In this document: piece by piece, positions 2,325 to 37,086 of the stretch
Numbering within the stretch: the stretch's first letter is position 1
Layout: every line of letters begins with the position of its first letter
Origin: a virus
Taxonomy: Duplodnaviria; Heunggongvirae; Uroviricota; Caudoviricetes
Virus record (IMG/VR): IMGVR_UViG_3300044451_000174
Location: 74,722 to 125,807 of that record
Direction: 5' to 3' (one strand)
Length of the DNA stretch: 51,086 nucleotides
Program-made: the position numbers and the translations under genes
Notes under the pieces: generated by a model
What the model was told of the DNA's origin: nothing
What the model saw: the letters and a program-made list of their open reading frames with translations, nothing else
Database searches by the model: none

Positions 2325-2680
2325 GACTTCCTCGTCAACATCGTCTTCTTCTTCGGGTGCTTCTTCAGGTCGGCCTTCGGCGGCAGCAAGAAAGAGGTGC
2401 CGTCGAACAAGGGTTTGCAACTCGGATACAGCCCTTGAAAACCCCTGGCGTGTAGTTTCTTCCTCAACTCTTGGTAGTGTTCGGCCGACTCGATCCACGG
2501 CTCCCAATACATGCGATTGTCGTAAATGATCTTCTCGACACTCGCATGAATCGTCGGGGGCAGTTTCAGAGATTCCAGATCAACGAGTCGGATTGGCGGT
2601 CGCTGCGGGCCGTCCAGCACCGTGACCACTCTGGCCCCCATTTTGTCCCGCCGCGCCAGATACAGGTAACAACGACTCAT
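2321..2680 (-). CDS. Hypothetical protein (119 aa)
   Basis: ATG at 2680 overlaps the TGA of the upstream endonuclease (TGATG coupling); basic C-terminus. Confidence 0.65.
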   Translation of the reverse strand: MSRCYLYLARRDKMGARVVTVLDGPQRPPIRLVDLESLKLPPTIHASVEKIIYDNRMYWEPWIESAEHYQELRKKLHARGFQGLYPSCKPLFDGTSFLLPPKADLKKHPKKKTMLTRKS

Positions 2681-3537
2681 CAAACCTCGCATTCTAGCTT
2701 GTACGACATACAAGCCGGCAGTTTACGTTCTTGTGAAATTGTCTTCCATTTAGACAGCAAGAAGTCTCTGCTTTTGCCAAGCATAACTAACTTGTTCTGA
2801 CCATTTCTGTGTTTGTAATACTTGATGTACATTGATAGATCTAAGTTTTGATTCAAAATGGACACCGCGTTCTCCAAGTCGATACGATCCCATCCTTTGG
2901 CTGATATTGAAGGTTGTGGCGATTTTTTGAGTCCATTGCTAAGACGGCCGGTTCTGGTAGTCCCCAGGTAGCCATCGTCCATGTACCAAATCATCAACCC
3001 GAAAAAATTCAGCTTGGAAATCAAGTCTACTGGAATTATGCTTTTGTCGCAGTTTTTCCTGGCCTTGTAGAATCGATCTCTCAATGAAGTAAATATCGGA
3101 TGACGGGCCGTAGAAATGTGCGTCTTTTTGTTTGAATTCCATCGCGACATGAAAGGCGACAGGATGTTCATTTTCCATTCGAGGTAATCAGTCTGTTTGG
3201 AACCATGTCCTTCGCAGAAGAAGTAGTTTTTGCAGTCGTCGCTTTTGGTCACACAACCATCGCCCAACATACTGCCGATCAGTACCTGAAAAACGCAGTC
3301 GTCAAAATCAGACAAGGAAAGGTTTTGGTCGAGTTTGCAGCCATTGCGAAACCGAGCGGCCTTTTCGCCAGACCTAGAACGACACTCAGCCGTAATAACT
3401 ACGCCGATTCTGTTCCTCATCTTGGCAATGGCAGGTGCAGTATGGCCCGGCAAGCAATCAATTAATTCAGTCGAATGTTTTGACGGCCCAAGCTGACGAA
3501 GTAATTCCAACTCGGATTCAGACCACGGTTTTCCCAT
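2680..3537 (-). mobile_element. Free-standing LAGLIDADG_2-type homing endonuclease with N-terminal Myb/HTH-like segment
   Basis: QVLIGSMLGDGCV, HGSKQTDYLEWK, LMIWYMDDG motifs; N-terminal WSESELELLR...AIAKMRNRIG; locally AT-rich (22/60 GC in 2761-2820). Confidence 0.85.
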
Positions 3538-5088: not shown

Positions 5089-6066
5089 ATGAAGATCAAG
5101 AGAAAGACACCTTCAAAAGCGCCGGCGTGGGGTCTTAGAGATTACTACGAGCGACGTGATAGGGTGCTGGTCGTTCGCGACGTTGGTGGCCTCGGCGACA
5201 TCCTGATGCAAAGGATGATGTTCGAGAGCTTCAAACGTGTGATGCCCGAATGTCACATCACCTGGGCCGTCCCCCAACAATACTTGGAAGCCGCCGCGAG
5301 ACATCCATTTGTTGACGAAGTGGTTGACTGCCGCACCGTCAACAAAGCCGACTTCACCCTCGTCTACAACATCACCTTCGCGTGCGGCCGGTACGAGAAC
5401 GCCATCGCACCCAGAGCCGACAAGCACCGCAGCGACATCTGGGCCAACCACTGTGGCGTGGTAATTGGCAAGCACGAAATGTATCTCGGCGTAACGGCCG
5501 AAGAGAAGAAAGCCGCCCGTCAACTTCTGCAACGCAGCGTATCGAGTCCGAACGCTCCGATCTTGGCAATGTGTCCCGCGTCGGCTCAGATCGGCAAGGA
5601 CATGTCGCCGGCACTACAGACGGAAGTCGTCACGCGAGTTTGGCAGAAGGGGTGCAACGTCGTTTGTCTGCACAACAAGTCCATGCCACACCTCGATCAG
5701 ATCGGGTGCCGAACCTTGAGCGGCTTGAACACGCGACAGTGGATAACGGCACTGGACGCGGCCGACTACGTCTTGAGCGTTGACACGTCGGCGTTCCACT
5801 GCGCGGGCGGGCTGAAGAAACCGCTGGTGGGAATTTTTACCTACTGCGACGGAAAAGTGTACGGAAAGTATTTCGACTTCGTACTCGTTCAAAAGCACAG
5901 GGACGACAGCAACTGGGATTGCGGCCCGTGCTTCAACTGGTCGATGTGCAAAAAAGAGTGCAAGAAAACGATCAAGCCGTGTGCGAGCGAGATCACGTCC
6001 GACATGGTGATGGACGGTATAGAAAAAATGATGGCGAAGTGGCCGTACAAGCCACAAATCGAATGA
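5089..6066 (+). CDS. GT9-family (ADP-heptose:LPS heptosyltransferase-like) glycosyltransferase
   Basis: VLVVRDVGGLGDILM and DYVLSVDTSAFHCAGGLKKPLVGIF are GT9 hallmark motifs. Confidence 0.85.
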   Translation: MKIKRKTPSKAPAWGLRDYYERRDRVLVVRDVGGLGDILMQRMMFESFKRVMPECHITWAVPQQYLEAAARHPFVDEVVDCRTVNKADFTLVYNITFACGRYENAIAPRADKHRSDIWANHCGVVIGKHEMYLGVTAEEKKAARQLLQRSVSSPNAPILAMCPASAQIGKDMSPALQTEVVTRVWQKGCNVVCLHNKSMPHLDQIGCRTLSGLNTRQWITALDAADYVLSVDTSAFHCAGGLKKPLVGIFTYCDGKVYGKYFDFVLVQKHRDDSNWDCGPCFNWSMCKKECKKTIKPCASEITSDMVMDGIEKMMAKWPYKPQIE

Positions 6067-6098
6067 GAGATACTCGATTAAAATACGCCGGACTTAGG

Positions 6099-6104
6099 TA
6101 AATA
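6099..6104 (+). promoter_or_regulatory. TANATA box 4 nt before ATG (putative leaderless start)
   Basis: TAAATA-GCTC-ATG. Confidence 0.5.
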
Positions 6105-6108
6105 GCTC

Positions 6109-6363
6109 ATGCCTCAAGTTATCAAACCACAGAACGTGAACATCACGACCCGCGACGGAGAGATAACGGTCAGGTTGGTAATCGACCTGAATCTGAATCT
6201 TGGTGGCGGTGTGGTGGGAATGTCTGTGGCGTCGGTAGCGAGTGCGGATCAGGTGCCTGAGCAAAAGCAGATGGCACCGAAGCCCGCAGAGGCAGCAGAG
6301 TGGATGATACCTGAGTTCACACCATCCACCGAAACGATTGAATTCGGAAAGTACGACAAGTGA
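6109..6363 (+). CDS. Hypothetical protein (84 aa), first gene of the actin-like operon
   Basis: ORF behind a TAAATA box; beta-hairpin-like N-terminus with a Pro/Glu tail. Confidence 0.65.
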   Translation: MPQVIKPQNVNITTRDGEITVRLVIDLNLNLGGGVVGMSVASVASADQVPEQKQMAPKPAEAAEWMIPEFTPSTETIEFGKYDK

Positions 6364-6397
6364 GATCGAAAGACCTCAAAACGAAAGGGTGAAAGAC

Positions 6398-7408
6398 ATG
6401 GCAATCGGATTTGACGTTGGCACATACAACCTCGTATGCTCCAAGCGTGACGAAAAGGGAAACTTCGTTCACAAGCGCGAAGTCAACGCATTTATCGAGA
6501 TTCCTCTCGAAAACGACTTCGTCTACAACATGATGAATAACGCTGGTGTCCCGCTGATCAAGAGGGACAAGTTGGCTTACGCCCTCGGCGAGTCGGCGGT
6601 CAAGATGGCCTACGCGATCAACTCGATGGAGTTGAAGCGGCCGATGTCGGACGGGTGCGTGAACCCGAAGGAAAAGGAAGCCTACCAGATCTTGAGCATC
6701 ATGATCCACTCGCTGATCGAGACGGTGAAGGAGGACAAGGAGCCTCTCTACTTCTGCGTCCCGGCCAACGCAATCAACGTCGAAACGGACGCGAACTTCC
6801 ACCGCCTGACGCTCGAAGGCATCTTCAAAGCCTTCAGGAACAAGGACGGAATGCGAGTCGATCCGCACCCGATTAACGAAGCCCTCGCCCTCGTTTACGC
6901 CGAACTGTCGAAGAAGGCGTACACGGGAATCGGGATCAGCTTCGGGGCCGGTATGGTCAACCTGTGTATGGCCATGTTCGGCAACCCCGTCTTCTCTTTC
7001 GCAATCGTCAACAGCGGAGACTGGATCGACAAGCAGGCGGCGCGAGCCACTGCCGAGTCGCCGACCTTCATCAACAAACAGAAGATGAAGATCGATCTCT
7101 CGAAAGCTCCCGGTGACCTCATCGAACGGGCGATCATCAGCCAGTACCGGCTGATGATCGAACACTGCGTATCCGAAATCAAAAACGGCCTGAACAAGAA
7201 CAGCAAAGTCGTAAGGACGGACGACCCGTTCGACATCGTTGTTTCCGGTGGGACCAGTTCGCCGCCCGGTTTCGTGGAAATGTTCAAGACTGTTCTGGAC
7301 GACGCCAAGCTGCCGATCAAGGTGAGCGAAGTGATCCGTCCGCAGGACACCTTGTACAGTGTTGCTCGTGGGTGTCTGCTCGCTGCCGAGGCGTCAACCC
7401 GAAAGTAA
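6398..7408 (+). CDS. Actin-fold ATPase (MreB/volactin/Mad28-like)
   Basis: Phosphate-1 FDVGTYN, YFCVPA, INEALA, phosphate-2 GIGISFGAGMVN, GDWID, adenosine VVSGGTSSPPGF, connect-2 LYSVARG. Start ATG 6398 after a purine-rich RBS. Confidence 0.85.
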   Translation: MAIGFDVGTYNLVCSKRDEKGNFVHKREVNAFIEIPLENDFVYNMMNNAGVPLIKRDKLAYALGESAVKMAYAINSMELKRPMSDGCVNPKEKEAYQILSIMIHSLIETVKEDKEPLYFCVPANAINVETDANFHRLTLEGIFKAFRNKDGMRVDPHPINEALALVYAELSKKAYTGIGISFGAGMVNLCMAMFGNPVFSFAIVNSGDWIDKQAARATAESPTFINKQKMKIDLSKAPGDLIERAIISQYRLMIEHCVSEIKNGLNKNSKVVRTDDPFDIVVSGGTSSPPGFVEMFKTVLDDAKLPIKVSEVIRPQDTLYSVARGCLLAAEASTRK

Positions 7409-7427
7409 CAAAGATAGGAATCCCAAA

Positions 7428-8081
7428 ATGGATGAGACGAAAAACAAACCCAACATCAACGACCTGTTGGATCAGCCCAGGCTCCGCAAGCCGACGCTTG
7501 AGGACATGAAGACCGCAGACGACTTCGCCAAAGAGGACGAAGTCCAGAAGAACATTGACGACTGGAAGGCCGGCAAACGCAAAACAGAACGGGCCAAGTA
7601 CACCAAAACCGAAGCCTACCCGGAACTGCCGAAGGGCAAGCTGCTGTTCCAGTGCGAAGAGTACGAGCAGCCGAAAGAGTACATCACGCTCACGATGAAC
7701 GAGAACAAGGATCTGATCAAAAAGATCATGGACGAGAAGGGGGCGCTCACGGACCACCCGCCGATCCCAGTGGATGAAATCAAGTGGGGCATGGAGAGCC
7801 TTGAGAACATCTACAGTGCCGTTCAAGAAGTTTTCCCAGATCCGAAGAAGGTGGAGGCCAACGACAACCGCATGTTCGAGTTGATCTCCAAATACATGGG
7901 TGGAGGCGTGGTGACATACAACCGCTGGAAGAATAAGTTGTGTGTCAAGGGCATCGAAACCAAGTTCGACATGCGTGAGATAAACGCGGCCGTGACCGCT
8001 CTGTCGGCGATCCTGCCGCCGCGAGAGGCTGAGAAGGTCGTGGCGCGTGAGTTGGGCAAGAAAATCGCAAACGTGCTATGA
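7428..8081 (+). CDS. Hypothetical protein (217 aa), charged N-terminus
   Basis: ATG 7428 lies 19 nt after the actin stop with TAGGA upstream. Confidence 0.7.
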   Translation: MDETKNKPNINDLLDQPRLRKPTLEDMKTADDFAKEDEVQKNIDDWKAGKRKTERAKYTKTEAYPELPKGKLLFQCEEYEQPKEYITLTMNENKDLIKKIMDEKGALTDHPPIPVDEIKWGMESLENIYSAVQEVFPDPKKVEANDNRMFELISKYMGGGVVTYNRWKNKLCVKGIETKFDMREINAAVTALSAILPPREAEKVVARELGKKIANVL

Positions 8082-8089
8082 ACAACAAA

Positions 8090-8115
8090 GAACCGGGGAG
8101 CATGCTCCCCGGTTC
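8090..8115. repeat. Perfect 26-bp palindrome
   Basis: GAACCGGGGAGCA|TGCTCCCCGGTTC; the two halves are exact reverse complements. Confidence 0.95.
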
Positions 8116-8129
8116 AAGAAGGAAGGCAA

Positions 8130-8591
8130 ATGAAAGAAGGAACAAAAGGTATCCCGATGCCGGTGAGCGACCTCGGCGTAGCCGCGTACATGGCCATGAA
8201 GGGTTGCGCATTGTCTGGTCGTCGCGACAAGACGATTTTCTTTTACGTCCCGGCCGAAAAGCTCAAGGAGTTCAAACGGTGGAAGCTGGACTACCTCGTG
8301 AGTGAATTTCACCGCTTCGACCACTGCCTGATGTCTTTGAAAAAGGTGGATGAGTCCGACCCCGATCAAGACTTTTCGTCGTGCAAGTTCCTGACCGATC
8401 TGGGAGCGGCGGCGTATGTGTTGATGCACAACTTCAGGATCATCGGGCGGCGCGGCAAGTCGTTCTACTTCGAGATCAACGACGACGACGAGGCCAAAAA
8501 CTTTGACGAACTCAGGCTCCAGTACGTCACCAGTGAGTTCCACGAGTTCGACTCGTCTCTCATGTCGGTTAAGAAAATCGGAGAGTCTTGA
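8130..8591 (+). CDS. Tandem two-domain protein (DUF5659-like, putative DNA-binding)
   Basis: Residues about 12-75 and 88-153 repeat DLG(V/A)AAY..M.....GRR.K..(F)...SEFH.FD..LMS.KK. Confidence 0.65.
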   Translation: MKEGTKGIPMPVSDLGVAAYMAMKGCALSGRRDKTIFFYVPAEKLKEFKRWKLDYLVSEFHRFDHCLMSLKKVDESDPDQDFSSCKFLTDLGAAAYVLMHNFRIIGRRGKSFYFEINDDDEAKNFDELRLQYVTSEFHEFDSSLMSVKKIGES

Positions 8592-9043
8592 GAAACATCA
8601 CCCTCTTGTTGAAAGAGGCGAAAGCCAAATTCCCAATTGGGACCGATTTGGAATGCAACGGGTACATCTGCACGGTACACGGCTATCAAGCCGTGTGCGT
8701 GTCCAGTATCCTGATGTTCGAGAGCATAATGCTCGTCATCGTGGGACACCCGTTTTTGCAATCCATCAACTTTGAAATTGGTTCAGCCCCTCTAAATAAT
8801 CAGGGGGATTATGCTGAGAACAATCGATTTGTACGAACAACTGAGCTTTTTCGAGGGGAGCAAGGACTTCGCCTCCGAACTAGAAGCTCTTTACCAGCAA
8901 CTGGCTTCCGTCAGAAGAAATCTGGACCAGAAGGTCGTCGGACTCGTCAACGATTTGCAAACGCAGATCATGAACGACAAGCTGCCTTCCAAGCGAGGGT
9001 TCTTTACCCGCGTTCACAACTGGTGGAAGAACCTGTTCGGTAG
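8588..9043 (+). CDS. Possible small phage protein (uncertain; 3' part overlaps the next gene)
   Basis: TTGA coupling to the upstream stop and phage-like LLKEAKAKFPIGT, but a 233-nt overlap with the gene at 8811. Confidence 0.25.
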   Translation: MRNITLLLKEAKAKFPIGTDLECNGYICTVHGYQAVCVSSILMFESIMLVIVGHPFLQSINFEIGSAPLNNQGDYAENNRFVRTTELFRGEQGLRLRTRSSLPATGFRQKKSGPEGRRTRQRFANADHERQAAFQARVLYPRSQLVEEPVR

Positions 9044-10499
9044 CGACCGTCGTTCCAACCCGTACTACTGGCAAAACAAGATCGGCGCACTCGGCCGCAC
9101 CGACCTCGAACCGCCCACCGTCCGCGAATACGCGATGCTCAAAAACCTCGCGGACACCCTGTGGGAAGACGCCTCCGCAGCACCACAACCACTGATCCGA
9201 AAGATCCTAAACAACTGGACCGCCAGACTCCGTCAGACCATCGCGTCCAGTTTGGACGACATGATGAATCGCGTTCGCAGTATGGCAACTCGTGTGGGCA
9301 GTACACCAGCACCCGAAAAGCCTCGTCCGACACCGGAGCCGACGCCGGAACCAAGAACGCCGACTGTGCATGATGACGATTTCGTGCCTGGGTCTGCCGC
9401 CGATGATGAGGGAGACGACGGCAGTACAGCCCCGCTAAAACCGGCCGAAAAACCCGAACTGACTCTCGATAAGCAGGCTGAAAAATTTGGCATATTCAAA
9501 GACACCAGAACCACTTTTGGTATCTTCGGAAAACTCGATGATTCCAAGAAAAGACTTATTATTGGTGCTTGTCGTTCTGGACATTGTCCGAAAAATGACA
9601 CGGCTGAAGACAAATACCCACTGAAAGAAATCCACGCTGCGACTAACAGATACTTGGAGCTTTTCAGGCAGAAGAAAAAGAAGGGTGACGCATGGAGTGG
9701 TCTGAACACCAGAGAACAGGAGATTCTCCGAGCGATACACGAGCCGTGGAACAAACTTGGCAAACGAAAGAATCTGCATAACAATCGCGGAAACAACGGC
9801 AAGCGGATAACTAACCGCAGCCAAAGTGGTCCGTTTACTTTGCCAAAAGTATTGCGAATTGATGATCCGAGGCACGAGATCCTCAGCAAATACTATCCCG
9901 AATTTTTCAATCAGTTGGATCTAGCTGGTCGTGTCGAACGACCGGACGATACCGAAGACAAGGTTACGAAACGAATTGCAAGACTTCTCAGAAAAGACAA
10001 AGAAGAGGGTCATCGTTCGGAAGACGAAAAGCCAGAGGTTGGCGACCGCGCCGAGATTCACAATATGTCCGATGAAAACCCAAAGGACACCGAAAAGCGG
10101 TCGGACTTCGATGACTTGAAAGCACTTTCGTCCCACGATAAAAGCGACAATTTTGAAGACAATCCAGAAACGGCTGCTGTCCAACAACGGCTCTACGAAC
10201 CCCAATACGAAGAGTTCGCCTCCAAAATTGAAAAGGTTGTCAAGACGGATCGTGAACTGGTGAAAAAGCTGATGGACACATGGGATCACATATCCGATAG
10301 CAAGACTTTAAGGAGAAAATTCTTGAAGTTGATTGAGGCCGGTAAGTACAAAGACATCCAAGCAATGTCCAGCGAGAAGAAAAAGAAGAAAACCTATGAA
10401 GACGATGACGAAGAGGTCAAAAAGCACTTCGGCGAAGGTGTGTCGGGTTTCAAACAGAAGATGAGGGCGGTGTCGGAAAGGATCTATCGCGAGTCTTAA
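8811..10499 (+). CDS. Hypothetical protein (562 aa) with Pro-rich linker and charged C-terminus
   Basis: TAAATA box at 8793-8798, GGGGGA RBS; PTPEPTPEP linker. Confidence 0.8.
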   Translation: MLRTIDLYEQLSFFEGSKDFASELEALYQQLASVRRNLDQKVVGLVNDLQTQIMNDKLPSKRGFFTRVHNWWKNLFGSDRRSNPYYWQNKIGALGRTDLEPPTVREYAMLKNLADTLWEDASAAPQPLIRKILNNWTARLRQTIASSLDDMMNRVRSMATRVGSTPAPEKPRPTPEPTPEPRTPTVHDDDFVPGSAADDEGDDGSTAPLKPAEKPELTLDKQAEKFGIFKDTRTTFGIFGKLDDSKKRLIIGACRSGHCPKNDTAEDKYPLKEIHAATNRYLELFRQKKKKGDAWSGLNTREQEILRAIHEPWNKLGKRKNLHNNRGNNGKRITNRSQSGPFTLPKVLRIDDPRHEILSKYYPEFFNQLDLAGRVERPDDTEDKVTKRIARLLRKDKEEGHRSEDEKPEVGDRAEIHNMSDENPKDTEKRSDFDDLKALSSHDKSDNFEDNPETAAVQQRLYEPQYEEFASKIEKVVKTDRELVKKLMDTWDHISDSKTLRRKFLKLIEAGKYKDIQAMSSEKKKKKTYEDDDEEVKKHFGEGVSGFKQKMRAVSERIYRES

Positions 10500-18893: not shown

Positions 18894-19628
18894 TCACTTG
18901 TTGTGAACGCGGTTCAGAGCTTTGAAATACTCCTCGATCATCGGACGGAACTTCTCAGGCAAATCCCTCGTGATTTCCTGCACAACTTTAGCGCGTTTCT
19001 CTGGCGGGAGCGTTCCCCACTGTTCGGCGACCTCTTTCAACTTCTTGTCATCTACTTTGCCCGACCCGGTGCCGCCCATGACGATTGAATCGGGGGCCGG
19101 ACTGTTGGGCTTGCCGTTACCCGGCCCCTGCTTGTCTTTGCCGGCCTGAGCGTCCTGTTCTGACTTGGACCCCTTGCCGCCGTCTTCTTTTTCTTTGATC
19201 AACTTGTCGAGTTTGGCGACGATGTCCTGCTGGATCTTCTGGGTGTCTTTGCCGGCGCGGGCGAGATCTAGCTTGTCGGCCGACATTCTCATGTCGCGTT
19301 CGATGTCGCCGAGGTCGTCCTTTTTCCAATCCTGAAGGTCACGTTCCATGAACAGTGCCATCGCCAAATGGCGTCTTTCAAGTGGCCGGAAGCTCTCCTT
19401 GAGATTCCAGACCCACTTCTGGGCTTCGATTTTGTTGTTGAGGGCGAAATAGTTGACCGCCATCAAGAAGCAGTATTCGTTGTACTGCTCGTTTGTGGGG
19501 GCGAACCCCTTCAAACGCACGAGTGACGCCTCATAATCTTTCTGGTACGTCAAATCTTTGGCTTGCAGAAGGGGACTGGTCGGTACGGGCTGAAGGGCCA
19601 GCACCAACGCAAGAAACAGTGCAGTCAT
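18894..19628 (-). CDS. Secreted helical protein with Planctomycete-type signature
   Basis: Signal peptide MTALFLALVLALQP; IERDMRMSADKL...TQKIQQDIVAKLDKLI; C-terminal WGTLPPEKR...LPEKFRPMIEEYFKAL. Confidence 0.7.
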   Translation of the reverse strand: MTALFLALVLALQPVPTSPLLQAKDLTYQKDYEASLVRLKGFAPTNEQYNEYCFLMAVNYFALNNKIEAQKWVWNLKESFRPLERRHLAMALFMERDLQDWKKDDLGDIERDMRMSADKLDLARAGKDTQKIQQDIVAKLDKLIKEKEDGGKGSKSEQDAQAGKDKQGPGNGKPNSPAPDSIVMGGTGSGKVDDKKLKEVAEQWGTLPPEKRAKVVQEITRDLPEKFRPMIEEYFKALNRVHNK

Positions 19629-19638
19629 TTTTGTGCCT

Positions 19639-20061
19639 TCAAGAGTGGAGCATTCTGAGGTTATCCGCATCAGTGCGGCTCTGCAAGATCTGTTCTTCGA
19701 GGAAGATTTCGATGACGCGGCCGTTTACGCCGCCGAGTTGTTGCGCCTGTTCGAGCCGCTCGACGTAGTTCGCGACCACTTCGGTTTCCATGTCGTAGGC
19801 GTACTTGACAGCGGTCTTCGGGTCGTCAAAAACGGGCATGCCCTTCGGGATCACGGAGATGTGACCGCCGAGTCCGATGATGAGGTCTTGGAACTGCTGG
19901 ACGTGTTTCATTTCGCTCGCGGCCTCGTCCAAGAACAGTTCCCGAATCTCTTGCCTGTGCAGCCCGATCAGCGTAGCCGAGTTCTGGAGGTAGAACATCA
20001 TGTGACCCATCTCGTTTGCCAAGTCGTTTTGCAAAAGGCCGATCATCGTCTTCAAGTCCAT
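19639..20061 (-). CDS. Bacterioferritin/ferritin-like di-iron protein
   Basis: NEMGH, ASEMKHVQQF..LIIGLGG, AYDMETEV, IFLEEQI; AAGGAGG RBS. Confidence 0.8.
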   Translation of the reverse strand: MDLKTMIGLLQNDLANEMGHMMFYLQNSATLIGLHRQEIRELFLDEAASEMKHVQQFQDLIIGLGGHISVIPKGMPVFDDPKTAVKYAYDMETEVVANYVERLEQAQQLGGVNGRVIEIFLEEQILQSRTDADNLRMLHS

Positions 20062-24010: not shown

Positions 24011-26569
24011 ATGACACCAGTTTGGGCAGACTTTTTCAAGATCTTCACCTACCAGTTCGCTCCCGACCCCTACAGCAGACGGGCGAACACACGCGACCTT
24101 TCGGGTGCCGGCGTAACACAGCCGGACGCCATCCCGATGATGGGGCCGGACGGCAGCATGTCCGGCAGCGGCGACTCCCGCCTCGTCAGGTTCCGCGATA
24201 CCAATGAAATGATCGACCTCTCGTCGGTCAGTAACCGCCAATCACGATACAAGGAATACCAAAGACTTTTGGGCGTCCCAGAGATCGACCGCGCGTTGAC
24301 AGTGTTCGCAGACGAAGCCTGTCTCGCGGGGTGGACGAAGGTGCAAACGCCACATGGCGAATTCACAATCGAGCAACTCGCCAAGACGCGGGCCAACGAC
24401 CGCTTCCTCGTCTACTGCTACGACCACAAGGCCGAGGACTACACTCTTGGGTGGGCTTACGCTCCGAGGAAAACCAAGACCGCCAAAACGCTTCAACTGG
24501 TCTTCGACAACGGCAAAATCCTGACGCTCACACACGACCACCGGATCATGACCGGCAAAGGAACATACGTTCAGGCTAGTGATGTGAAGATCGGCGATGA
24601 GATGATGCCGTTCTATCGGCTGCGTCCGAACCCCGAATTGAACAAATTGAAAACCGGGCAACAGCCGAGGATCTACTCGCACCGCAAAGGGTGGATCAAC
24701 GAGCGGCAGTTCGTTGACGATTGGAAATCCGGCAAGACTCAAGAGCGGTACGAGGAGGCCAACAAGATCTCCCGGCTCGCGGCCGGCGGCTTGGTCATGG
24801 AGCAGATCCTGAAACAGATCCCGCATGATTGGAAGACGATCAAATTGCGGCTGGCGCGGACTGGCTTCACATACAAGGAGTTGAAGAAACTCGGCGAGAA
24901 AGAAAAAACCAGACGCATCGTTGACATCCGGCCGGGGCCGGAAATTGATGTGTACGACATGAGCGTGGAGAAGCACGAGAACTTCTGCACAGACAGCATC
25001 GTGGTACACAACTGCCAGAAGGATGAGTTCGGCAACCTGTTTAAGATCGAGTGCAGCAACCGCGAGGTCGTTGAAGAGGCGAAGCACTTCTTCTTCCACC
25101 GTCAAATGTTGAACATGAACCGCAAGGCGTGGGCCGAGTTCAGGAAGCTGTGTTTGTTGGGCGACCTGTTCTGGGAGGCGATCATCAACCCGGAGCGGCC
25201 GGGCGACGGCATCGCGAACTTTGCCAGCTTGCCGGCCGAGTCGATGTACCGCATCGAAACAACGAAGGGCAAGCTGATCGAGTTCCAGCAGGCGCGAGAG
25301 GGGCCGGACTACAACGCCCTGGTCCGTGCGCCGATCATGCAGGCCAATGACGCCGAAATTGCACAAAGCACCGCCATTCGGTTCGCGCCGGAACAGATCG
25401 TTCACATCAGGATCGGCGACAACCGAAAAACGTTCTACCCGTATGGCGTCTCGCTGGTTGAACCCGCTCGCGGTCCAGCACACCAGTTACGTTTGATGGA
25501 AGACGCGATGTTGGTGTACCGGCTTTCGAGAAGCCCGGAGCGGCGTGTATTTTACATTGACGTTGGACAACTCCCACCGTTCAAGGCAGAGGCGTTTGTC
25601 GAGCGTCTGAAGGACCAATTCAGGAAGAAGAAGGTGGCGACCAACAGGTCGCCGTATCAAGGCGCGAACCAAGTGGAAGAAAGGTGGCACGCCCCGGCCG
25701 TGGACGAGGACTACTGGTTGCCGATTCGCGGCGACTCGCAGACCAAGATCGACACGTTGCCGGGAGCGCAGAACCTCGGCGAGATCGATGACGCCGTATA
25801 CTTCCGTAATAAATTGTTCGTAGCATTGAACTTCCCTCCGAACTACCTGAGCAACGAAGACCCGAACGCAACGAGGATCACGTTGTCGGCTCAGGACGTG
25901 AAGTTCGCGAGGATGATCGAACGGTTGCAGGGCCACTTCGAGGACGGCCTGTGGGAAATGTTGGACAGACACCTGCAAATGATCGGGTATCCACCTGATG
26001 TGTACGACGACTTGGTGATCAAGATGACGCCGCCAAGCGATTGGCGTGAACTGAGCCGTGCGGAGACGACGAACAACCGGGTGACGACGGCGAGCAGCCT
26101 GAAGTCGGCCCAGTTGATGTCGGACTACGACGTTCACATTCGGTATCTGCGTCACTCCGAGGAAGAAACCGAGGAAATGATCGCGAGGCTAAAGATTCAG
26201 AAACTTGAGGAACTGAAGCTGCAAATCTTGGCACAGAACCCGCAACTATTGGGCGTGGGTACTCCGGGTACTGAAGGCCAAGACGGGCAGGAAATAGGAT
26301 CTCAGGCCGGTGGTCCGAGTCCGATGTTGGGTGGTGACCCGGCAGCGGGCGGGGCTGGCGGTGCTGCACCGCCTCCGGGTGGTGGACTGGCGGCTGAGGA
26401 ACCGCCGGAAGGTGGTCCTGGGAACGCGACACCGGACGCGCAGAAACCTCAAGGAAAGCCGCTCGCCGATCCTGAAGAAGAGGAGATCATGAAGTACGAT
26501 CTCGAAATTCAGGACTACGACGCTGAACAAGATGTGGAAGACATCGACTACAGCGTAAACAACGAGTGA
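24011..26569 (+). CDS. gp20: Portal protein (T4 gp20-like) with intein
   Basis: EIDRAL..FADEA, LEPARG..HQLRLMEDAMLVYRLSRSPERRVFYIDVGQLPPFKAEAFV, EDYWLPIRG, TKIDTLPG.QNLGEIDD..YFRNKLF.ALN.P. Confidence 0.95.
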   Translation: MTPVWADFFKIFTYQFAPDPYSRRANTRDLSGAGVTQPDAIPMMGPDGSMSGSGDSRLVRFRDTNEMIDLSSVSNRQSRYKEYQRLLGVPEIDRALTVFADEACLAGWTKVQTPHGEFTIEQLAKTRANDRFLVYCYDHKAEDYTLGWAYAPRKTKTAKTLQLVFDNGKILTLTHDHRIMTGKGTYVQASDVKIGDEMMPFYRLRPNPELNKLKTGQQPRIYSHRKGWINERQFVDDWKSGKTQERYEEANKISRLAAGGLVMEQILKQIPHDWKTIKLRLARTGFTYKELKKLGEKEKTRRIVDIRPGPEIDVYDMSVEKHENFCTDSIVVHNCQKDEFGNLFKIECSNREVVEEAKHFFFHRQMLNMNRKAWAEFRKLCLLGDLFWEAIINPERPGDGIANFASLPAESMYRIETTKGKLIEFQQAREGPDYNALVRAPIMQANDAEIAQSTAIRFAPEQIVHIRIGDNRKTFYPYGVSLVEPARGPAHQLRLMEDAMLVYRLSRSPERRVFYIDVGQLPPFKAEAFVERLKDQFRKKKVATNRSPYQGANQVEERWHAPAVDEDYWLPIRGDSQTKIDTLPGAQNLGEIDDAVYFRNKLFVALNFPPNYLSNEDPNATRITLSAQDVKFARMIERLQGHFEDGLWEMLDRHLQMIGYPPDVYDDLVIKMTPPSDWRELSRAETTNNRVTTASSLKSAQLMSDYDVHIRYLRHSEEETEEMIARLKIQKLEELKLQILAQNPQLLGVGTPGTEGQDGQEIGSQAGGPSPMLGGDPAAGGAGGAAPPPGGGLAAEEPPEGGPGNATPDAQKPQGKPLADPEEEEIMKYDLEIQDYDAEQDVEDIDYSVNNE
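24320..25012 (+). mobile_element. Intein (231 aa, Cys104-Asn334) in the portal protein
   Basis: Block A CLAGWTKV, block B LTLTHDHRIM, block F VYDMSVEKHENF, block G VVHN followed by Cys(+1); exteins rejoin as FADEA-CQKDE. Confidence 0.93.
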
Positions 26570-35964: not shown

Positions 35965-36271
35965 GAAGACGAAGTTCCAACTGACTCTCGAATCGCTCGG
36001 CTTCAACACCTACACCGCGTACCTCAGATCCGACCACTGGACGGATTTCAAGAAGAAGTATTTCGACAAGCACGAAAAGGTCTGCTTCTGTTGTGGTGAA
36101 GACGCACGCGACCTTCACCACACGACCTACGAACACCTCGGAAGCGAACTTCAAAAAGACGTGAAGCCCCTCTGTCGGAAGTGCCACAAGAAGGTCCACC
36201 GGATGGTGAAGAGACGCCGCGCCCTGCTCGGCGAAGCTCACGAAGTCCTGAAAGCCACTTCCAAACGCTGA
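35921..36271 (+). CDS. HNH endonuclease-like protein
   Basis: YLRSDHW...CFCC....LHHTTY.HLG.E......LCRKCHKKVH; TTG start with AAGGAG upstream. Confidence 0.8.
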   Translation: MSKRTPKKRKKHKRKKTKFQLTLESLGFNTYTAYLRSDHWTDFKKKYFDKHEKVCFCCGEDARDLHHTTYEHLGSELQKDVKPLCRKCHKKVHRMVKRRRALLGEAHEVLKATSKR

Positions 36272-36318
36272 AATCATCTGTGCTGGATAGATACCCACAA
36301 ACACCTCAGTGGGGAACC

Positions 36319-37086
36319 ATGCACAAAATCAAGCGATACGGTTGGAAACGCGGACTCCCGAAATACGGCGTTCCGAGGTTTGAAGCCCCGATGACCGCCG
36401 GGCCGCTCCCCAAGTACGTTGATCTCACGTCCCAAATGCCCCCGGTCTACGACCAGGGCGAACTCGGCTCATGCACGGCCAACGCCGCTGCCGCCCTCGC
36501 CCAGTTCCTGAACATGAGGGAAGGTTACAAGCCCTACACCCCGTCGCGGCTCGCCATCTACTACTGGGAACGAGTCATCGAGCGGACGGTTCACGAAGAC
36601 GCTGGAGCCTCGCTCACGTCGGCCGCACACGTTCTCGCTACCAACGGCGCACCCAACGAAACACTCTGGCCGTACAAGATCGACAAGTTCGCCGTCGCGC
36701 CGCCTGAGAGCGTGGTAGCGAACGGCAAGCAGCACATCGTCACCAAGCCGCTCAAGGTCAAGCAGAACATGGACGACATCCGGGCGTGTCTCGCGGCCGG
36801 ATACCCAATCATGTTCGGCTTCGTCGTCTACGACTCGTTCGAGAGCGAAGAGGTCGGCAAGACCGGATTGTTGTCAATGCCCAGAGACGGGGAACAACTA
36901 CTGGGTGGTCACGCCGTCGTCGCGGTCGGGTACGATGACACCACCAAACTCATCAAGGTACGCAACTCGTGGGGACCGAAATGGGGATGGAAAGGACACT
37001 TCAAGATGCCCTATTCCTACGTCCAAGACCCCGATCTTACAGACGACCTGTGGACCGCACATTACATCACCGGCTTCAAAGGATGA
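36319..37086 (+). CDS. Papain-like cysteine protease (C1A)
   Basis: DQGELGSCTANA (Gln/Cys), GGHAVVAVGY (His), VRNSWG (Asn). Confidence 0.95.
   Translation: MHKIKRYGWKRGLPKYGVPRFEAPMTAGPLPKYVDLTSQMPPVYDQGELGSCTANAAAALAQFLNMREGYKPYTPSRLAIYYWERVIERTVHEDAGASLTSAAHVLATNGAPNETLWPYKIDKFAVAPPESVVANGKQHIVTKPLKVKQNMDDIRACLAAGYPIMFGFVVYDSFESEEVGKTGLLSMPRDGEQLLGGHAVVAVGYDDTTKLIKVRNSWGPKWGWKGHFKMPYSYVQDPDLTDDLWTAHYITGFKG

Follow-up and report, generated by a model that had tools for sequence, protein, structure and literature searches.

Introduction

To our knowledge, phage-made cytoskeletons are known mainly from PhuZ, the tubulin of nucleus-forming jumbo phages, and from a few ParM- or AlpC-type actins of prophages and plasmids. 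In the Chimalliviridae, PhuZ forms a tubulin spindle that positions genomes and capsids (PMC7950403, PMC8314001), and in both the AlpC/AlpA system of the Corynebacterium glutamicum prophage CGP3 and the ParM/ParR system of plasmid R1, an actin-like filament moves DNA together with a small adaptor encoded next to it (PMC4446434, PMC5539076). Among cellular actins, volactin (VolA, HVO_2015) of Haloferax volcanii forms dynamic, dynamically unstable filaments in vivo (PMC10869688), and Mad28, whose gene lies beside that of MamK in the magnetosome clusters of deep-branching magnetotactic bacteria, polymerises in vitro and also assembles into filaments within E. coli (PMC10653835). Here we describe an actin gene at positions 6398-7408 (+ strand) of a 51,086-nucleotide stretch of viral DNA (positions 74,722 to 125,807 of the IMG/VR record IMGVR_UViG_3300044451_000174; this whole stretch is hereafter the window). 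Its product falls within the volactin family, and the gene travels with two small partner genes in a lineage of T4-like huge phages.

Phage and prophage actins of other families (AlpC, ParM-type) are already known; what appears new is a module built on a volactin-type actin and kept as core by a lineage of huge phages. Our literature searches on volactin found no phage-related report, and no relevant one emerged for actins in huge, jumbo or mega-phages. Al-Shayeb et al. 2020, in the main text of their huge-phage paper, name tubulin homologues and never actin (PMC7162821). A member of a barely studied and recently named actin family appears here as a core-like gene of a huge-phage lineage that is itself very large and widespread in the environment.

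Results

The gene reads from an ATG at 6398 to a stop codon that ends at 7408 and encodes a protein of 336 residues, with a Shine-Dalgarno-like AAGGGTGA located 6-7 nt 5' of the start. A longer reading from a TTG at 6338 was set aside, as it overlaps the upstream gene and all homologues start M-A/P-I-G-F-D. An initial annotation, made from the letters of the window without database searches, had proposed a phage actin resembling the volactin/Mad28 group. Against Pfam, the protein matches Volactin (PF25216) from end to end of the profile (residues 1-330 on positions 1-321 of 321; 233.8 bits against a cut-off of 35; E 4.6e-69), and the same match was recovered in a six-frame search of the whole record. 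The models of other actin families that we compared fell below their cut-offs: Pfam MreB_Mbl (23.4 bits vs 27) and Actin (18.3 bits) aligned with residues 55-132 only, and the NCBIfam models for MamK and MreB reached 25.4 bits vs 400 and 19.2 bits vs 293, respectively. The ParM/StbA, FtsA and Hsp70 models gave no match at E <= 1, a sequence search of the PDB returned only matches with E > 0.2, and PHROGs yielded no family for either the actin or its partners.

We found every actin ATPase motif quoted in the initial annotation within the 336-residue open reading frame, namely phosphate 1 (GFDVGT, residues 4-9), connect 1 (INEAL, with E161), phosphate 2 (GIGISFGAGMVN, residues 177-188), the GDWID motif (residues 207-211), the adenosine motif (VSGGTSSPPGF, residues 281-291) and connect 2 (LYSVARG, residues 319-325). 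The hallmarks of the family are all present in the window protein, these being a phosphate 2 of the form S-x-G-x-G, an N-E connect 1 that lacks Pro, and G-D-W-I-D. In phosphate 2, S181 (GIGISFGAG) replaces the Asp that occupies this position in actin, MreB, ParM and Hsp70. In an alignment of 161 family members that spans phages, bacteria and archaea, S181 never varies, nor do E161, G183, G185, D208 and D211, which indicates that S181 is a family hallmark and not a decayed site.

Both departures from the actin consensus that have been described for Mad28, which carries Ser for the phosphate-2 Asp (xxxSxGxGxx) and xExx for xEPx in connect 1 and has a MamK-like fold (PMC10653835), recur in the window protein as GIGISFGAG and INEAL. 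This likeness is by description only, and Mad28 is a longer protein of 42.6 kDa (PMC12713370) encoded in magnetosome clusters, whereas the gene reported here lies in a T4-like phage with no magnetosome genes. In MamK and MreB, unlike in the window protein, phosphate 2 carries the Asp and connect 1 reads E-P.

An intein was found at the same loop in a related phage actin (RXKI01000042.1, 5369-7504 of the fetched locus, binned as Neisseriaceae). It is a LAGLIDADG intein of about 372 residues that sits directly after the hallmark Ser, such that the protein reads GIGIS, then the intein (C...HN), then CGAG. Several representatives of about 700 residues in our global search are interrupted near the same phosphate-2 position. 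Inteins home to critical, highly conserved sites, and an intein at the phosphate-2 Ser is therefore consistent with a functional nucleotide-binding loop.

An AlphaFold2 model of the protein (104 homologues) shows an actin fold with high confidence (pLDDT 95.4, pTM 0.92), and its best structural matches in the PDB by Foldseek are all filament-forming actins, with MamK at the top and ParM ranking low. These comparisons bear on the possibility that the protein is a non-polymerising ASKHA ATPase, be it chaperone-, kinase- or EutJ-like, that merely resembles a cytoskeletal actin. The replacement of the canonical phosphate-2 Asp by Ser would favour such an enzyme, as would the presence of EutJ at rank 40 of the Foldseek list and of Hsp70 homologues in first place in the viral structure library. 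We consider it very unlikely, given the placement of the protein in a tree rooted on Hsp70 nucleotide-binding domains, in which the MreBs were authentic ones, taken from bacteria with volactin homologues of their own. There, the volactin family forms a branch with 100% support in the Shimodaira-Hasegawa-like approximate likelihood ratio test (length 2.96), and MreB, the other actin-like proteins and Hsp70 fall outside it, MreB and MamK in separate clades. Profile searches and phylogeny therefore agree in placing the window protein within the volactin family, at 100% support, and not among ASKHA kinases or chaperones.

Within the family, the sequences of the window's phage lineage form a monophyletic clade (100% support) that nests among bacterial members, with the haloarchaeal pair basal. 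The window protein thus shares with volactin a full-length match to the same Pfam family, the hallmark residues and the clade in the rooted tree. Volactin, however, is encoded by a cell, and its haloarchaeal members are about 33% identical to the phage actin, which is encoded by a phage together with phage-only partners that stand beside no cellular homologue we examined. Judged on sequence, then, the window protein belongs over its full length to the volactin family and is not an MreB, an actin or a MamK. The volactin half of the initial proposal is borne out by profile and tree, and the Mad28 half agrees with the motifs described for that protein; the phage clade groups with bacterial members (31-41% identity), the haloarchaeal pair being basal.

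The actin gene lies within a small co-oriented gene set. Directly upstream of it, at 6109-6363 (+ strand), is a gene for an 84-residue protein made up of a conserved beta-rich N-terminal module of about 33 residues, a variable linker of about 25 residues and a conserved C-terminal peptide, W-x-I-P-D/E-F-(4-5 residues)-K-x-x-F-G-K; the protein has no match in Pfam, PHROG or NCBIfam. Downstream, at 8130-8591 (+ strand), is a gene for a 153-residue protein with two tandem repeats of about 70 residues (beta-alpha-beta-beta-alpha-alpha) and the signature SDLGAAAY...HRFD.C.MSLKKIGEY. This partner is more conserved than the actin itself, with a mean column identity of 74%. A 'DUF5659-like' label for it, which stemmed from a weak Atlas lead (0.78), was dropped, since no Pfam match was obtained at E <= 5 and no PF18903 was found in the record at E <= 10.

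The two partners accompany the actin throughout its phage relatives. In the first 80 viral loci, examined by tblastn, the upstream partner was present in 76 and the downstream partner in 79, and two divergent loci missed by tblastn proved, in hidden Markov model (HMM) searches, to hold both. A second sample gave both partners in 62 of 67 loci, the misses lying mostly at contig ends, and a reciprocal search that started from the downstream partner recovered the actin in 71 of 72 loci, the exception being cut at a contig end. By HMM, the partners occur in none of 75 cellular loci. The gene order withstands insertions, as is seen in nine loci in which a GIY-YIG/NUMOD3 homing endonuclease lies between the upstream gene and the actin (e.g. 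locus L188, 3674-4435) and in the 44 of 153 loci where additional DNA separates the downstream partner from the actin.

In the window, this slot is filled by a gene (7431-8081, + strand) for a 216-residue protein whose N-terminal part is variable and whose C-terminal domain, about 90 residues long, is conserved. The protein has no Pfam family of its own. The same C-terminal domain occurs in slot proteins of at least 32 of the 153 loci, about a fifth of those sampled, and the window protein matches the HMM of these proteins with an E of 3.6e-15. From this recurrence, the slot gene seems to be a fourth, facultative member of the module and not an insert that landed there at random. Two related phage loci (L188, 5536-7359, and L221, 7051-8676) encode slot proteins of 541-607 residues in which a TerL-like ATPase N-domain (Terminase_6N, E 8e-12) precedes this C-terminal domain.

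Homologues of the window actin were found by alignment-based scans of genome and viral contigs, as single-protein scans returned none. At least 568 IMG/VR contigs encode relatives. The proteins of 147 distinct fetched loci are 55-70% identical to that of the window and derive from contigs of up to 572 kb, and contigs of 673, 586 and 428 kb encode proteins that are 65-90% identical. Among large phage genomes or records, we examined five of 323-595 kb: LR745208 and four from the window's own lineage, one of which is rated 100% complete at 533 kb. The actin gene is single-copy in all five, and a tubulin-family gene (PF00091) was found in none of them. Within its own lineage, the actin is 60-69% identical, compared with 55-65% for the large terminase (TerL) and 81-90% for the major capsid protein (MCP). 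Being about as conserved as TerL, the actin behaves as a core gene.

The initial annotation had also called the source T4-like, and the window bears this out: it holds a T4-type TerL (by Pfam match), portal gp20, prohead protease gp21 and MCP gp23. The record to which the window belongs is 125.8 kb long with a CheckV completeness of 25%, which implies a full genome of about 0.5 Mb. From this gene content and size, the source is an uncultured T4-like huge phage whose genome measures about half a megabase. Its nearest GenBank record is the metagenomic phage genome LR756511.1 (595 kb; actin 59.6% and MCP 83% identical), which, together with LR745208, we take to have been deposited by Al-Shayeb et al. 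2020. A Planctomycete host had been suggested by way of the gene at 18894-19670, and this lead was abandoned when the encoded protein gave no Pfam match.

A phage gene can be mimicked by a cellular one on a mis-assembled or mis-classified contig, or by a recent host passenger. In keeping with such an origin, four close homologues were met in the bins of bacterial metagenome-assembled genomes (MAGs) and two large related records carry the IMG/VR label 'provirus'. The four best MAG matches (56-68% identity), however, come from Chloracidobacterium, Acidimicrobiaceae, Bacteriovoracaceae and Neisseriaceae bins, one of them on a contig of 546 kb. Since these contigs share the window's phage neighbours and their assigned taxa are mutually unrelated, they are probably mis-binned huge-phage DNA. 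Moreover, both in the window and in related genomes the actin gene lies about 13-27 kb from those for TerL, portal and MCP, and the phage clade is an old, monophyletic one whose conservation is close to that of TerL. We therefore regard a non-phage origin as highly improbable.

Genuine cellular homologues are far more distant (31-41% identity, on contigs of up to 6.2 Mb) and come from Planctomycetota, Omnitrophota, Acidobacteriota, Nitrospirota, Elusimicrobiota, Patescibacteria and Halobacteriales. They have no conserved neighbours spanning phyla. A second, unrelated huge phage, LR745208.1 (485 kb, a metagenomic phage genome), carries an actin gene at 337426-338391 whose product is only 32.6% identical to that of the window and groups with the Planctomycetota/Omnitrophota set at 99% support; it lacks the partner genes, by HMM as well, and no MCP or TerL similarity to the window is detectable. 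LR745208 represents a second, independent phage lineage with a volactin-type actin, and these differences suggest that the gene was acquired independently. The volactin family is thus far broader than the haloarchaea, extending to Planctomycetota, Omnitrophota, Acidobacteriota, Nitrospirota and at least two phage lineages.

Three family members were also seen in a Ca. Magnetobacteriaceae genome. Two are tandem paralogues on contig 74 (L250:9649-12348) that have N-terminal extensions of 85-107 residues and lie beside caspase-domain and DnaJ-domain proteins, and the third adjoins a MinD/ParA-type ATPase and a LysM protein. None of the three is in a recognisable magnetosome cluster; all lie among housekeeping genes.

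Discussion

We favour, with a probability of about 0.55, the reading that these phages make a cytomotive or scaffolding filament with dedicated adaptors. By analogy with its relatives volactin and Mad28, the actin would bind ATP and polymerise into filaments in the infected cell. The 84-residue protein would dock on the filament or its cargo via its conserved C-terminal peptide, the tandem-domain protein would act as a second adaptor or regulator, and the module as a whole would position procapsids, sites of assembly or the genome under replication within the host, a job comparable to those of the tubulin PhuZ in nucleus-forming jumbo phages and of AlpC/AlpA in prophage CGP3. The closest precedent for this mechanism is offered by AlpC/AlpA and ParM/ParR, in which the actin gene is likewise adjoined by a small gene, although these actins belong to a different family and are borne by a prophage and a plasmid rather than by a virulent-type T4-like huge phage. 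PhuZ, for its part, is likewise a phage-encoded cytoskeletal protein whose gene is conserved across a jumbo-phage lineage; the parallel is a functional analogy only, as PhuZ has a tubulin fold where the window protein has an actin fold, and the lineage that carries it is unrelated to one with T4-type gp23 and gp20.

Several points weigh against this reading. The partners are not the only conserved neighbours, since orf233, orf210, GT9 and the gene for a 562-residue protein (see below) are also conserved around the module, and all the loci belong to one monophyletic, broadly syntenic lineage. Adjacency within a single syntenic lineage is weaker evidence of coupling than co-occurrence across unrelated contexts would be, and we therefore take the constant company of the partners as suggestive of functional coupling, short of proof.

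A further difficulty concerns cargo. Neither partner has a recognisable DNA-binding fold, and positions 5800-9000 contain no centromere-like repeat array, only a single 26-bp palindrome, though such repeats could lie elsewhere in the genome. These two observations leave segregation of the ParMRC or AlpAC type without direct support. On that account, the actin would move copies of the phage genome by means of a DNA-binding adaptor on a centromere-like site, perhaps in a plasmid-like carrier state. Its appeal is that the actin gene is flanked by small co-oriented genes, as in parM-parR and alpC-alpA (PMC4446434, PMC5539076), and that volactin filaments display ParM-like dynamic instability (PMC10869688). 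On balance, we find this account improbable.

The main rival to a positioning filament is remodelling of the host cell, which we hold to be unlikely, if less so than segregation. Here, the phage actin would move no cargo and would instead override or replace the host cytoskeleton, altering cell shape or size or blocking division, for instance so that very large capsids have enough space. A role in disturbing division would fit the I-P-x-F tail of the upstream partner, which we take to resemble the C-terminal peptide that FtsZ uses to bind FtsA and other components of the divisome. The cellular homologues coexist with MreB in all four bacterial genomes that were checked, which suggests that the family has a role distinct from that of MreB. 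The founding member, volactin, moreover acts as a determinant of cell shape in Haloferax volcanii and not in cargo positioning (PMC10869688), a point that counts for remodelling and against our favoured reading alike. On the other hand, the phage clade has long diverged from every cellular group (31-41% identity), no host-like volactin is specifically close to it in the tree, and its partners are found in phages only. This pattern argues for a dedicated phage machine rather than for mimicry of a host protein.

A fuller version of the filament reading is more tentative, and we would give it somewhat short of even odds. In this version, a widespread group of T4-like phages with genomes of about half a megabase would build an actin cytoskeleton of its own, consisting of a volactin-type filament, a docking adaptor with an FtsZ-like tail, a tandem-domain regulator and a facultative fourth subunit, and would use it instead of a tubulin spindle to organise replication or capsid assembly. 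Viruses of bacteria would then have invented, independently and on the basis of actin, a way to organise the interior of the infected cell. More generally, should the module form filaments, phages would have a second, independent means of organising a giant viral genome inside a bacterium, and a family with little biochemistry would gain many natural sequence variants and candidate partners.

Other features of the window and related genomes

In the spacer before the downstream partner gene, at 8090-8115, lies the perfect palindrome mentioned above (13+13 with no loop; GAACCGGGGAGCA/TGCTCCCCGGTTC). It is unique in the window and was not reached in any of 100 shuffles, and it may represent an RNA hairpin or a protein-binding site. 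Beyond the module, at 8811-10499 (+ strand), is the gene for a charged, low-complexity protein of 562 residues without a family match. Such a gene usually follows the module (51 of 80 viral loci, at 23-34% identity), and its link to the actin is putative. A free-standing LAGLIDADG_2 homing endonuclease gene (2680-3537, - strand) stands just upstream of the conserved block that contains the actin module.

The portal gene (24011-26569, + strand) is interrupted by an intein, its product matching Pfam Intein_splicing over residues 154-334 and then Portal_T4 over residues 360-724. The window further encodes a primase, a PD-(D/E)XK nuclease, several glycosyl- and pyruvyl-transferases, a papain-family cysteine protease (Peptidase_C1, 36181-37086, + strand, E 1.8e-13) and a class-III aminotransferase (48860-50161, + strand, E 1.9e-80).

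The complete 533-kb relative IMGVR_UViG_3300049215_000771 contains, in addition to a full MCP gene, seven short stretches elsewhere that are 34-79% identical to fragments of the window MCP; a TGA lies inside one of these stretches. Similar stretches, though fewer, occur in LR756511.1. Those of the complete relative may be scattered gene fragments or a common short domain.
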